A stretch of 63,453 nt of DNA, counting the filler. It is 7 parts of 7 records of this genome, joined end to end, with 100 filler letters (N's around TTAATTAATTAA, not from the genome) between each part and the next. Parts side by side here need not be neighbours in the genome. Positions count along the whole stretch, not along the records: positions 49,861 to 55,642 come from SRR20825006_2378; 6 more parts are not named here. One strand, given 5' to 3'. The notes below the pieces were generated by a model. The model had not been told where the DNA came from and searched no databases. It saw only the letters and a list, made by a program, of their open reading frames with translations. Each line of letters starts with the position of its first letter. The first letter of the stretch is position 1. Made by a program: the position numbers and the translations under genes. This document shows positions 6,042 to 55,742 of this stretch, piece after piece.

Positions 6042-6141
6042 NNNNNNNNNNNNNNNNNNNNNNNNNNNNNNNNNNNNNNNNNNNNTTAATTAATTAANNN
6101 NNNNNNNNNNNNNNNNNNNNNNNNNNNNNNNNNNNNNNNNN
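6042..6141. other. Artificial contig-joining spacer
   Basis: 100 nt of N around TTAATTAATTAA (stops in all six frames). Confidence 0.99.
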
Positions 6142-13108: not shown

Positions 13109-13208
13109 NNNNNNNNNNNNNNNNNNNNNNNNNNNNNNNNNNNNNNNNNNNNTTAATTAATTAANNNNNNNNNNNNNNNNNNNNNNNNNNNNNNNNNNNN
13201 NNNNNNNN
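13109..13208. other. Artificial contig-joining spacer
   Basis: N run with TTAATTAATTAA. Confidence 0.99.
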
Positions 13209-28580: not shown

Positions 28581-28680
28581 NNNNNNNNNNNNNNNNNNNN
28601 NNNNNNNNNNNNNNNNNNNNNNNNTTAATTAATTAANNNNNNNNNNNNNNNNNNNNNNNNNNNNNNNNNNNNNNNNNNNN
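28581..28680. other. Artificial contig-joining spacer
   Basis: N run with TTAATTAATTAA. Confidence 0.99.
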
Positions 28681-37516: not shown

Positions 37517-37616
37517 NNNNNNNNNNNNNNNNNNNNNNNNNNNNNNNNNNNNNNNNNNNNTTAATTAATTAANNNNNNNNNNNNNNNNNNNNNNNNNNNN
37601 NNNNNNNNNNNNNNNN
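37517..37616. other. Artificial contig-joining spacer
   Basis: N run with TTAATTAATTAA. Confidence 0.99.
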
Positions 37617-49760: not shown

Positions 49761-49860
49761 NNNNNNNNNNNNNNNNNNNNNNNNNNNNNNNNNNNNNNNN
49801 NNNNTTAATTAATTAANNNNNNNNNNNNNNNNNNNNNNNNNNNNNNNNNNNNNNNNNNNN
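49761..49860. other. Artificial contig-joining spacer
   Basis: N run with TTAATTAATTAA. Confidence 0.99.
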
Positions 49861-50111
49861 TTTTTCATCTTTTCCCTCAACGTCTTTGCAAGTGCGGAAA
49901 ACCGCCTACAAAAATTAGATGAACGACTTTTCGCCGTTCGGTTCGGGGTAATGGAGCCAGTAAAACTATGGCGCGTCAACAACACTGTGATCGAAAAGAT
50001 ACATTCCCGCATCTTAGTTGCATATTTGACACACATGTTTTTGTTTGCTCCAAGCCGTGTCGGCCCTATAGTGCGGGCAGAAATTCTGATGCCTTGGACA
50101 AGGAATGGACC

Positions 50112-50684
50112 GTGCGATTGTCTCTTGTTAAAGTTTTTGCCCAGGTTGCAATATGTTTGCTGCTTGCAGCATGTGGTGCGGGCACCCAATCCGAATATGA
50201 TAGTTATCCGGGCTCCGCGCCGGGTGACAAACGTGTTGGAACAACCGGCCGCTCGCAAACAATCGCGGACCAGAAAAAAGAAGGGACCCTGTTTGGTCCC
50301 GACGGCTTTAATTTTCTGGGTGGTGATGAAAGCAAGAATCAGGGCAACGGCACAGGTATAGGTGTGAACAGTTTTCTGTGGCGCGCATCCCTTGATACCC
50401 TCTCCTTCATGCCGCTGAATTCAGCCGACCCGTTTGGCGGTGTGATCATTACCGATTGGTACAGCCCGCCGGAAACACCAAACGAGCGTTTCAAGATTAC
50501 GGGCTATATCCTCGGTACCGCCCTTCGCTCCGACGCGATCAAGGTCTCTGTCTTCCGACAGGTCCGAGTTGGAACGGACCAATGGGCAGATGCTGTGGTT
50601 GAACCAAGTACGATAACCGCAATGGAAGACTCGATTCTGACCCGTGCGCGTCAACTGCGCATTGACAGCGCAACCGCACAATAA
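50112..50684 (+). CDS. DUF3576 lipoprotein
   Basis: Lipobox LAAC; GVNSFLWRASLDTLSFMPL...DPFGGVIITDWY...ILTRARQLR; GTG start after aaggaa. Confidence 0.9.
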   Translation: MRLSLVKVFAQVAICLLLAACGAGTQSEYDSYPGSAPGDKRVGTTGRSQTIADQKKEGTLFGPDGFNFLGGDESKNQGNGTGIGVNSFLWRASLDTLSFMPLNSADPFGGVIITDWYSPPETPNERFKITGYILGTALRSDAIKVSVFRQVRVGTDQWADAVVEPSTITAMEDSILTRARQLRIDSATAQ

Positions 50685-50693
50685 GCATTCTGT

Positions 50694-51389
50694 TTGGATA
50701 TGCCAGACACACCTATATATGTGTCAGGTCAATACAACCCCCATTCGCTGACACGTGAATGGGGGTTTATCTTGGCCCTTCATCGACCTGCATTATCACA
50801 ATACGGGGATGATCTGCGCGCTGGGCGACTTGCAATCGCGTGCGAAATTCTTGGCCTGCTTCCTGCTTGGGAAGAACAAAAGGATTTTCCCCGCCAGCCA
50901 AAAAATGCAGGACCGGTTTCAACAGACATCATCGAAAACAATCTGGCAAAGCTTCATTCCCAGATAGGCAGTGATATCTTGTGCCTCACGCTTCTGGCAG
51001 ATGTGCCACTTGATCGTCCTTTGCATATTACCCAAAGCAGCCTGATCGGCCATTGGCGCTGGCTGCGTCAGGTTTGGACCAAACTGGCGATAGACGAGCA
51101 GGCCTTTACCTTTATGCCTGAAGCCCAGGCTCACAGTTTACGAGATACGCCGAAAAGCAAAATTGTAGACGAGCTTGCAAAGGGTCGTTTCAATACGGCC
51201 GTTGCGAACCTGCGTAGCGACTTCAAGTCTCTTTCAAATAACAGCGACTCAGCTAAAGATCTTGAACTCAGACTTTCTTTCATCACGAACCTAACTCTGT
51301 TTTGCCCTTTGATCGGATCGGAACTATTGTATCGTCTTGGTCATGCGCCTTTCGGCAAAAACCATCACGCAAAAAATAGCGAGGAATGA
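50694..51389 (+). CDS. Reduced leucyl-tRNA-synthetase-derived protein (anticodon-binding domain kept, catalytic core lost)
   Basis: Sits in the leuS slot between DUF3576 and lptE. Segments YNP, GSDILCLTLLADVP...GHWRWLRQVW, RFNTAVA and FCPLIGSELLYRLG align by eye with LeuRS. No HIGH or KMSKS. Confidence 0.72.
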   Translation: MDMPDTPIYVSGQYNPHSLTREWGFILALHRPALSQYGDDLRAGRLAIACEILGLLPAWEEQKDFPRQPKNAGPVSTDIIENNLAKLHSQIGSDILCLTLLADVPLDRPLHITQSSLIGHWRWLRQVWTKLAIDEQAFTFMPEAQAHSLRDTPKSKIVDELAKGRFNTAVANLRSDFKSLSNNSDSAKDLELRLSFITNLTLFCPLIGSELLYRLGHAPFGKNHHAKNSEE

Positions 51390-51895
51390 CGTTGCGCACC
51401 CTGTTATCGATTATCGCCGTGCTTGCCCTGACCGGCCTCACCGCTTGCGGCTTCCGCCCTCTTTATGCCGAGGATAAAGGCGGTGACAGTACCGCGGTCG
51501 ATATGGCGAGGGTCAAAATATCGATGATGGAAGACCGAATCGGACAAATAACACGTAACGTTCTGGTCGAAACGCTGACCCCGCGCGGCCAAACTGTTCG
51601 GCCGGAATATACTCTCGATATTACTCTTGATGAATCAACTTCCGAACTCGGTTATACCAAGGACAATGAAGCAACTATTGCCGACTACATTTTGAGCGCC
51701 CAGTACCAACTTTCTCGAATTTCCGACTCAAGAATACTCCGTTCAGGCACGCTTCGCGCCCGAACAACTTACAACCTTGTCGACTCCGACTTTGCCTCAC
51801 TAGAAGCAGAGTCCGCCGCCCGCTCAGACGCTGCCCGGAATCTTGCCCGACAGCTTGCCAATCAGGTCGCCGTTGGCCTGCGCAGCGGACGTTAG
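51386..51895 (+). CDS. lptE: LPS assembly lipoprotein LptE
   Basis: LTACGFRPLY lipobox; position before holA. Confidence 0.9.
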   Translation: MTLRTLLSIIAVLALTGLTACGFRPLYAEDKGGDSTAVDMARVKISMMEDRIGQITRNVLVETLTPRGQTVRPEYTLDITLDESTSELGYTKDNEATIADYILSAQYQLSRISDSRILRSGTLRARTTYNLVDSDFASLEAESAARSDAARNLARQLANQVAVGLRSGR

Positions 51896-51908
51896 GTAAT
51901 ATCACGCA

Positions 51909-52940
51909 ATGAAGCTCAAGGCGGCACAGGTTGAAAATTTCCTTCGCGCTCCCGATGCCAAGGCGCAACTCGTCCTGATCTATGGCGAGGATGAGGGGCT
52001 TGTACGAGAACGTGCGGTCAGACTTGCCAAAACCGTGGTCGAGGATCTCAAGGATCCATTCCGTGTAATCGAACTTGGCACCGCCCAGCTTAAGGAAGAC
52101 GCCAGCCGTCTGCGCGATGAAGCCGCCGCCATCAGTTTTGGTGGCGGGCGCCGTGTGATCCGAATCCGCGACATTAGCGAGGCACAGGCCCCCGTCATTG
52201 CCGATTTCCTTGCCGATCCCGCCGGTGATGCCCTGATCGTCATCGAAGCCGGCAGCCTTGCGTCCAAATCGAAACTGCGTCAGACGGTCGAGAAAGCCGG
52301 TAATGGCATGGCACTGCCCTGCTATGCCGACAGCGGACGAGATATCGAAGCCCTGATCAATTCCGTCATGGAAGATCACAAACTGCGCATTGATCGCGAT
52401 GCCATACGCTATCTGGTCGGTAACCTGGGCTCTGACAGGATGATTTCACGAAGCGAACTTGAAAAACTGGCTCTTTACGCTCTGAAAGAAGGTCAGGTCA
52501 CATTGGCCGACGCGATGTCCTGTGTCGGGGATAGTTCCGCCCGCCATTATGACGATGTCGTGCAGGCCGTATCCCAGGGCAATGTCGCAAGCCTCGATAG
52601 CGCCCTGACCCGCCTGGTCGAAGAAGGCCTCAATCCGGTTGGCGCACTTCGCATGATGATCGGCTATTTTCAAAAACTACATCTGGTCAAAGGCCAGATT
52701 GCACAAGGCACGAATGCCGAACAGGCGATGAAATCGTTGCGTCCCCCCCTGTTTTTCAAGGCCGCAGATCAGTTTCGCGCCAATCTGCAGAATTGGGCAT
52801 TGGGAAATCTGCAACGCGCCCTGCAAATCCTGCTAGAAGCCGAAAAGGATTGTAAAAGTGGGCTCGCCATCCCCGAAACCATCGCACACCGCGCGATGAT
52901 CAAGGTCGCCGTTGCCCGCCAGAAGCAGGGCAGACGCTAA
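51909..52940 (+). CDS. holA: DNA polymerase III subunit delta
   Basis: LIYGEDEGL, SKLR, CYAD, ELEKLALY and RPPLFF motifs. Confidence 0.94.
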   Translation: MKLKAAQVENFLRAPDAKAQLVLIYGEDEGLVRERAVRLAKTVVEDLKDPFRVIELGTAQLKEDASRLRDEAAAISFGGGRRVIRIRDISEAQAPVIADFLADPAGDALIVIEAGSLASKSKLRQTVEKAGNGMALPCYADSGRDIEALINSVMEDHKLRIDRDAIRYLVGNLGSDRMISRSELEKLALYALKEGQVTLADAMSCVGDSSARHYDDVVQAVSQGNVASLDSALTRLVEEGLNPVGALRMMIGYFQKLHLVKGQIAQGTNAEQAMKSLRPPLFFKAADQFRANLQNWALGNLQRALQILLEAEKDCKSGLAIPETIAHRAMIKVAVARQKQGRR

Positions 52941-55642: not shown

Positions 55643-55742
55643 NNNNNNNNNNNNNNNNNNNNNNNNNNNNNNNNNNNNNNNNNNNNTTAATTAATTAANN
55701 NNNNNNNNNNNNNNNNNNNNNNNNNNNNNNNNNNNNNNNNNN
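55643..55742. other. Artificial contig-joining spacer
   Basis: N run with TTAATTAATTAA. Confidence 0.99.

Follow-up and report, generated by a model that had tools for sequence, protein, structure and literature searches.

Foreign aminoacyl-tRNA synthetase (aaRS) genes often displace their native counterparts, which would normally be expected to disappear afterwards. Several synthetase-derived proteins (HisZ, YadB/GluQ-RS, EpmA/PoxA, AlaX and YbaK) no longer charge tRNA for translation and are kept by selection; re-purposed paralogues of this kind arose by duplication and mostly keep the catalytic or editing core. In leucyl-tRNA synthetase (LeuRS), the stem-contact fold and the helical bundle face the tRNA, and the β subunit of the split LeuRS of Aquifex aeolicus is a stand-alone C-terminal, tRNA-facing part of the enzyme. 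The present work concerns a stretch of DNA of 63,453 nucleotides (the window; GC content 57%), in which a short open reading frame (ORF) at positions 50694-51389, here called mini-LeuRS, lies between a DUF3576 lipoprotein gene and lptE, the place that leuS occupies in outgroup genomes. Among named relatives, the window is closest to a strain of a marine bacterial genus, Thalassospira sp. MCCC 1A03138 (91% identity across the ORF).

In the excerpt available of PMC3927953, the isolated C-terminal domain of human mitochondrial LeuRS is described as having a non-catalytic biological effect on tRNAs. Excerpts of PMC3436685 and PMC4005665 report divergent LeuRS of the Halobacteriales, in which LeuRS was displaced or duplicated by foreign copies. 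A full-text literature search found no work on a mini-LeuRS, on the leucyl-tRNA synthetase of Thalassospira, or on leuS, lptE and holA together. Judged by title and abstract, none of the matches listed for horizontal transfer of LeuRS in Alphaproteobacteria was relevant, and none of those listed for truncated or non-catalytic LeuRS paralogues concerned bacteria of this kind.

The mini-LeuRS is a vestige of the native alphaproteobacterial leuS, reduced in place, as is shown mainly by synteny. It cannot aminoacylate, and its amino-acid sequence is under purifying selection. It is probably kept as a protein with a non-enzymatic function of its own, a binding module being the most likely form of such a function. 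Public records label the orthologues 'hypothetical protein' and, in one case, 'leucyl-tRNA synthetase'.

A LeuRS remnant in the leuS slot

The ORF and its parts are given below, with ω as the ratio of nonsynonymous to synonymous substitution rates and pLDDT as the predicted local distance difference test score.

50694-51389, plus strand: mini-LeuRS ORF, 231 amino acids (aa) if read from TTG 50694, but more likely 229 aa with ATG 50700 as the start
50718-50765, plus strand: conserved N-terminal motif Y.S..YNPHSL.R.WG (aa 7-22 of the 229-aa form; ω 0.27; pLDDT below 50)
50772-50942, plus strand: variable linker (aa 25-81; one confident helix at aa 39-53; invariant R43; ω 0.34)
50943-51089, plus strand: post-KMSKS stem-contact-fold segment vG.D...L.LLaDVP..RP....ghWRWLR.vW (aa 82-130; from hhalign, TIGR00396 and Protein Data Bank (PDB) alignments; ω 0.13)
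51156-51347, plus strand: helical-bundle segment of the anticodon-binding-domain type, N.A.A.LR..F ... F...L.LFCP.Ig.eLl.r.G. (aa 153-216; ω 0.37)
51300-51340, plus strand: promoter-like element in the 3' part of the ORF, conserved at the nucleotide level (consensus over 38 genomes)

The initial annotation had described an uninterrupted ORF between DUF3576 and lptE with an ATGA overlap, and such an ORF is indeed present, its stop codon overlapping the lptE ATG at 51386-51389. The length of 231 aa given there holds as an open frame from TTG 50694, but ATG 50700, giving 229 aa, is the best-aligned start among 38 orthologous loci. Five residues of the N-terminal motif (S9, P14, L17, W21 and G22) are invariant in 75 family sequences, and the linker of aa 25-81 is the site of length variation and of in-frame indels between genomes.

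The ORF was searched for in 61 genomes related to G001, the genome holding the locus L001. Fifty-seven of them gave a match and four gave none. In 37 of the 57, the match is a short open frame of 214-290 aa without internal stops, while in the other 20 it forms part of a frame of 850-910 aa, or of 557 aa in one case where the contig ends. The order DUF3576-mini-LeuRS-lptE-holA is found in all 37 carriers, which are genomes of the Thalassospira clade and have an open frame of 205-258 aa in the slot, and DUF3576-leuS-lptE-holA in all eight outgroups examined, with a leuS of 844-870 aa. This is the ancestral order, with a LeuRS of about 850 aa, from which the initial annotation had started. The position of lptE is kept in 45 of 45 loci compared.

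Purifying selection on the remnant

Every one of 38 loci retains an intact frame with all four conserved blocks, and no frameshift was seen among the orthologues, despite many indels in the linkers. The carriers are not near-identical genomes, as pairwise synonymous divergence (dS) among them reaches at least 1. At the deepest split, identity to the window is 81-82% for HolA, about 70% for DUF3576 and 53-61% for LptE, and it falls to 31-34% for mini-LeuRS. Codon models gave the following values for the four genes.

mini-LeuRS: ω 0.35
DUF3576: ω 0.09
LptE: ω 0.10
HolA: ω 0.05

For mini-LeuRS, ω = 1 is rejected (twice the log-likelihood difference, 2ΔlnL, 857.5), and each of five partitions lies significantly below 1; to the values listed above for the N-terminal motif, the first linker, the stem-contact segment and the bundle, the second linker adds 0.58, the two linker values being rough since alignments there are unreliable. 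Pairwise estimates by the Nei-Gojobori method (NG86) lie between 0.18 and 0.39 in 18 of 21 pairs.

Forty-six columns of the alignment are at least 90% conserved, and the window copy deviates at none of them. Neither do any of the 19-21 nonsynonymous differences between the window copy and its two nearest relatives fall in these columns, and the same count of zero holds for the comparison among all three (window, L011 and L012). At the conserved residues, synonymous codons vary freely: there are six at each of L96 and R106 and four at each of V102, P103 and G90, and the invariant stem-contact residues in general use four to six. This combination of conserved residues and free codons indicates that selection acts on the amino acids.

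The open frame could otherwise be a chance survivor of a recent deletion in a decaying pseudogene. Such a reading would accord with the missing Pfam match, with a LeuRS profile score of 24.5 bits against a cut-off of 548, with the label 'hypothetical protein' in public records and with an ω near 1 among the closest relatives of the window. It has next to no probability left, as the frame is open in all 37 species-level genomes down to 31% identity, neutrality is rejected with a 2ΔlnL of 857 at an overall ω of 0.35, dS extends to at least 1, and the many linker indels have caused no frameshift. The proposal of a retained, non-decaying gene in the initial annotation, for which dN/dS across orthologues had been named as a check, is thus upheld.

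Among the window, L011 and L012, the dS of mini-LeuRS and lptE is 0.04-0.07, several-fold below that of the flanking DUF3576 gene (0.26-0.44). For holA, dS is 0.29-0.32 in two of the three pairs and 0.06 between the window and L012. These low values hint at a recent recombination or sweep over a short stretch.

Homology to the tRNA-facing part of LeuRS

Homology to LeuRS covers residues ~82-216 of mini-LeuRS, which correspond to the post-KMSKS stem-contact fold and helical bundle of the enzyme. In TIGR00396, the NCBIfam profile of bacterial LeuRS, aa 89-220 match profile positions 621-763 of 843 (E 6.7e-6), with a score of 24.5 bits versus a curated cut-off of 548.4. When a profile of the 38 orthologues was aligned by hhalign with eight alphaproteobacterial LeuRS, residues 81-215 matched LeuRS 638-787 of 868 with a probability of 96.8% (E 2.5e-10), and a phmmer search of the PDB returned Thermus thermophilus LeuRS as the sole match (E 0.006). 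A family profile built from 75 members was run against 1.84 billion representative proteins. At E ≤1e-10 it retrieved 20 proteins of 79-254 aa, all members of the mini-LeuRS family, followed after a gap by C-terminal regions of LeuRS from E 1.9e-9. In the ESM Atlas, the best match is probably the protein's own cluster, and the others are anticodon-binding-domain clusters at 0.84-0.88, which serve as leads only. No Pfam family reaches its cut-off on the ORF, and PF08264 (Anticodon_1) gave no match at E up to 1. A sub-threshold match to SRP19 (E 0.12) was taken as chance.

A model of mini-LeuRS built with AlphaFold2 (AF2) on the family alignment has a pLDDT of 73.9 and a predicted template modelling score of 0.76, and is weak at residues 1-27, 136-150 and 219-229. 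The best 50 rows of a Foldseek search with this model are all LeuRS (best E 2.4e-4). Structural alignment by VIA-align with LeuRS gave Z scores of 15.9-16.0 over 186-192 residues at a root-mean-square deviation (rmsd) of 3.6-3.9; in the alignment with T. thermophilus LeuRS (1h3n; Z 15.9, 192 residues, rmsd 3.9), model residues 5-220 span chain residues 1-802. The LeuRS likeness of the post-KMSKS and bundle segments, noticed by eye in the initial annotation, is therefore borne out by profile, hhalign, PDB and structural comparisons, the last of which it had suggested as a check.

The catalytic parts of the enzyme are missing, again as first described. The HIGH and KMSKS motifs, searched for as H[ILMVA]GH and KM[SG]K, occur in none of the 38 orthologues, the profile match begins only at 621, and the CP1 editing domain (PF13603) has no match at the Pfam cut-off. 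The C-terminal LeuRS domain (profile ~770-843) is absent as well, as the TIGR00396 match stops at 763 and the ORF ends 13 residues past the helical bundle. An in-frame loss of most of the protein had been proposed; the frame is open as that proposal stated, but a single deletion is too simple a history, with the C-terminal domain also gone. In residues ~25-81, hhalign detected nothing LeuRS-like.

The N-terminal motif had been assigned to LeuRS on account of its YNP...W residues, and it is plausible that it represents the old LeuRS N-terminus. The LeuRS of the outgroups begins with RYNFKETEAKWQ, which has Y, N and, nine residues on, W in common with the motif, and the VIA-align superposition begins at model residue 5, equivalent to LeuRS residue 1, in a part of the model with a pLDDT below 50. 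The motif itself proved invariant at its key positions. However, a hidden Markov model (HMM) of residues 1 to ~29, run against 1,389 ORF pieces, recovered none of the eight outgroup LeuRS N-termini above noise, hhalign aligned the C-terminal part alone with both the alphaproteobacterial LeuRS and the type-2 truncated family (see below), and the first 45 aa had no phmmer match in the PDB.

Displacement by a foreign LeuRS

G001 contains one complete LeuRS elsewhere in the genome:

L010 7193-10201, minus strand: long LeuRS of G001, ~1000 aa, outside the ancestral slot

Its longest frame is 1002 aa and scores 871.9 bits with TIGR00396 over profile positions 4-843. The protein has an editing domain (PF13603, E 5.6e-55) and an Anticodon_1 domain of its own, and its KMSKS position reads KMGKR. 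Neighbouring genes encode sugar-nucleotide, glycosyltransferase and DUF5610 proteins and a Cu/Zn-superoxide dismutase (SodC). The long LeuRS occurs at 81-100% identity in all 37 carriers of mini-LeuRS and in none of 24 outgroups; 21 of the latter matched only through their own LeuRS of ~850-1087 aa (32-48% identity, in pieces), and three gave no match. A second full LeuRS was not found in the carriers, and tblastn detected no full-length leuS within the 63-kb window. The supply of leucylation by a leuS elsewhere, as anticipated in the initial annotation, is thus met with throughout the related carriers.

In a tree of 34 LeuRS, the long form falls into a clade with other long forms and with sequences of Planctomycetota and Eisenbacteria (support 100), apart from the alphaproteobacterial-type clade (support 100), so that the suggested search for a full-length leuS and its phylogeny leads to enzymes of the Planctomycetota type. 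The closest named relatives outside Thalassospira are from Phycisphaerae (~50-52% identity), and other matches reach 53-68%. By blastp, mini-LeuRS is 29-32% identical to alphaproteobacterial-type LeuRS (E 4e-13 to 4e-9) and 26% identical to the clade's own long LeuRS (E 5e-7). In a tree of the C-terminal region, a branch with support 97/90 sets 14 mini-LeuRS rows, together with eight alphaproteobacterial-type rows, apart from the rest.

A further reading is that mini-LeuRS acts in trans as a subunit of a split LeuRS of the Aquifex α/β type, completing a catalytic fragment encoded elsewhere. In its favour, the LeuRS-like part begins just after the KMSKS position (profile 621). This arrangement is nevertheless very improbable. 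The 14 TIGR00396 matches in G001 comprise the one complete LeuRS and weak matches in frames of other sizes, with no stand-alone catalytic fragment among them; the long LeuRS carries its own Anticodon_1 domain; and neither KMSKS nor the C-terminal domain is present in mini-LeuRS.

Coupling to lptE and a conserved DNA element

The genes around mini-LeuRS in the window are as follows.

49968-50684, plus strand: DUF3576 lipoprotein gene, the upstream neighbour (PF12100, E 3.2e-43)
51381-51389, plus strand: Shine-Dalgarno sequence GAGGA of lptE and ATGA stop/start overlap, in the last codons of mini-LeuRS
51386-51895, plus strand: lptE, lipopolysaccharide-assembly lipoprotein (PF04390, E 1.6e-4; 22.7 bits, cut-off 23)
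51909-52940, plus strand: holA, DNA polymerase III delta subunit (TIGR01128, E 1.3e-59)

In most genomes, mini-LeuRS starts 4-31 nucleotides (nt) after the DUF3576 stop. At all 38 loci its own stop falls within 4 nt of the lptE ATG on either side (-4 in 28, -1 in one, 0 in two and +4 in seven). The leuS of the outgroups overlaps lptE by 14 nt in seven of eight cases, which indicates that the coupling is ancestral and was rebuilt after loss of the C-terminal domain.

Close to this junction, positions 51300-51340 follow the consensus TTTTG.CCTT..ATCG.....GAa.TaTtGT over 38 genomes. Third codon positions are conserved here at 0.83-0.87 versus ~0.4 outside the element, and some codons do not vary at all (TTT, CCT and ATC each in 38 of 38, TTG in 37 of 37). 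The sequences TTGCCC (51302-51307) and TATTGT (51325-51330), separated by 17 nt and located ~55 nt upstream of the lptE ATG, resemble a promoter and may act as one. A consensus promoter scan of 49800-52000 returned no sites; the element fits eight of 12 consensus positions, and the scan minimum is nine. A structured RNA at 51300-51340 was ruled out: Rfam gave only a sub-threshold match to rdlD on the minus strand (E 0.43) for 50500-51600 and none at the element, and the predicted fold of 51285-51400 is no more stable than that of shuffled sequences (z +1.35).

The DUF3576 ORF probably has its true start downstream of 49968. The region matching its N-terminal extension in the window contains stops in 13 of 38 orthologous loci. 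Within 49968-50150, a lipoprotein-like signal ending in LLAACG lies further inside the frame. Paired runs of 44 N with 12 bases between them, read as masked or withheld sequence, occur at 6042-6141, 13109-13208, 28581-28680, 37517-37616, 49761-49860 and 55643-55742, and one such pair lies ~100 nt upstream of the DUF3576 ORF.

Proposed function of the remnant

According to the proposed scheme, the ancestor of the Thalassospira clade would have acquired a foreign LeuRS of ~1000 aa, grouping with enzymes of the Planctomycetota type, which, encoded at another locus, took over leucylation. The resident leuS would then have lost the Rossmann catalytic core with HIGH and KMSKS, the CP1 editing domain, the leucine-specific domain and the C-terminal domain. 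The remaining product would be a cytoplasmic protein of 205-258 aa, consisting of N-terminal peptide, variable linker, stem-contact fold and helical bundle, its sequence kept in every descendant examined by selection on the amino acids. Such retention points to a non-enzymatic binding module as the most likely function, and tRNA-Leu is the obvious candidate ligand, since the retained parts are those that face the tRNA in LeuRS. The operon would in addition hold the frame in place, through the start close to the DUF3576 stop, the final codons with the ribosome-binding site and start overlap of lptE, and the promoter-like element. In this scheme, the remnant would be translated and would bind a partner.

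Several observations weigh against this reading. The presence of the long LeuRS in the window strain is inferred from relatives, including two at 90-91% identity. The stem branch of the mini-LeuRS family is long (~3-4 substitutions per site), so that long-branch effects are possible, and a topology uniting the family with the long-type LeuRS survives an approximately unbiased (AU) test (p 0.171), which leaves the native origin resting mainly on synteny. Class Ia synthetases other than LeuRS score Z 12-14 against the structural model (MetRS 14.1, ValRS 13.8, IleRS 13.3); the fold alone is therefore class-wide and no mark of LeuRS in particular. Towards its N-terminus, the model has a pLDDT below 50. 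The median pI of the family is 6.5, which is not basic and lends no support to tRNA binding, and published excerpts assign contacts with the tertiary pairs of tRNA-Leu to the C-terminal domain of LeuRS, a domain absent from mini-LeuRS. Contigs from RNA libraries of four studies are identical to the window, over all of 49900-52873 in X1 and over parts of the ORF in X7, X9 and X10; being contigs, possibly from DNA carry-over, they reveal no transcript starts or amounts and are not evidence of transcription or translation. Finally, mini-LeuRS evolves 3-7 times faster than its neighbours in terms of ω, and the NG86 values for the pairs among the window, L011 and L012 are 0.62-1.11, calculated from 6-10 synonymous and 19-30 nonsynonymous codon differences.

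The last two observations, together with the very variable linker lengths, are also what would be expected of an operon bridge, that is, a remnant without function of its own that is kept translatable to deliver ribosomes to the essential lptE (and holA). Its 3' end would then matter for holding the ribosome-binding site of lptE and a promoter, and amino-acid conservation would reflect only the avoidance of misfolding or toxicity. The tight spacing to DUF3576 and lptE, the 14-nt overlap in the outgroups and the nucleotide-level conservation at 51300-51340 all fit this idea. Yet a bridge needs an open frame and not a particular sequence, and the 46 conserved columns with free synonymous codons, as well as the ω of 0.13 in the stem-contact segment, go beyond that need. 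The four conserved blocks survive in every one of the 38 loci despite many in-frame indels elsewhere, and the coupling would be served equally well by removal of the whole ORF, with the DUF3576 stop brought up to the lptE start, which is seen in none of them. Misfolding avoidance does not explain an invariant motif in an N-terminal region that is predicted to be disordered. Coupling as the sole reason for retention is thus clearly the less probable account, if one to be taken seriously, and retention as a non-enzymatic protein is preferred.

A second truncated LeuRS family

Among the weaker matches of the family-profile search, further short proteins were found in which a clear LeuRS N-terminus (ERYN..E.RWQ) is followed directly by the post-KMSKS region. 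This type-2 family has 11 divergent members (P0224, P0310, P0328-P0335 and P0338) of 282-362 aa, with 39-57% identity to the first member and 65 invariant columns. Its proteins keep the C-terminal domain and contain PF08264, and have neither HIGH nor KMSKS. The singletons P0220 (277 aa) and P0237 (269 aa) resemble the Thalassospira protein in ending at profile position ~772, and all truncated forms begin their LeuRS-like part at profile position 612-621. One type-2 gene could be placed in its context:

L068 5977-7074: type-2 gene between DUF3576 and lptE-holA, on a metagenomic contig of 65% GC, with a 14-nt lptE overlap

HolA on this contig is only 42% identical to that of the window. In 301 genomes of the order, the 150 of 291 matches listed included no clear untruncated short form of the type-2 family, besides seven frames below 600 aa on small contigs, and 401 genomes of the class, searched at the DNA level, yielded none. 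A quick tree sets 27 truncated rows apart by a single branch (Shimodaira-Hasegawa-like approximate likelihood ratio 96), but contains long branches and two junk rows, and no conclusion was drawn from it.

The two families invite the speculation, which is rather unlikely to hold in full, that LeuRS has a non-catalytic function residing in N-terminal peptide, stem-contact fold and bundle, and that the enzyme was stripped down to this module by selection, and the module retained in the DUF3576-lptE-holA operon, after foreign takeover at least twice. If so, the module may bind tRNA-Leu or another partner and link translation status to the co-transcribed genes lptE (envelope) and holA (replication).

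Comparison with known systems

A core-less remnant under purifying selection throughout a genus, and a similar remnant in the same slot of an unrelated lineage, suggest that LeuRS has a role besides tRNA charging. The old puzzle of why leuS, lptE and holA stay together in Proteobacteria thereby becomes testable. Thalassospira offers a natural separation-of-function allele, in which experiments on the remnant are not confounded by loss of leucylation. For annotation, neither 'hypothetical protein' nor 'leucyl-tRNA synthetase' is adequate for mini-LeuRS ORFs.

Compared with bacterial LeuRS (TIGR00396; 1h3n, 4aq7), mini-LeuRS is alike in residues ~82-216, in its fold (Z 15.9) and in its slot between DUF3576 and lptE, and differs in having no HIGH, KMSKS, Rossmann core, CP1, leucine-specific or C-terminal domain. 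Like the β subunit of Aquifex aeolicus, it is a stand-alone piece of the tRNA-facing part of LeuRS. Unlike that subunit, it has an N-terminal peptide and no C-terminal domain; no α partner was found in G001, and the carrier genomes contain a complete LeuRS. The fragment of human mitochondrial LeuRS described in the excerpt of PMC3927953 is the C-terminal domain, precisely the part that is absent from the Thalassospira protein and kept by the type-2 protein of L068. In the Halobacteriales cases, as far as the excerpts of PMC3436685 and PMC4005665 go, a foreign-type LeuRS serves the cell as it does in Thalassospira, but two full-length enzymes are involved and no core-less vestige is described. 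The re-purposed aaRS paralogues differ in turn, because mini-LeuRS has lost the catalytic core, represents the original gene without any change of slot and was reduced after a foreign enzyme had taken over. What makes mini-LeuRS unusual among these systems is that a native gene, after its displacement and without its catalytic core, is conserved genus-wide in the ancestral operon slot.

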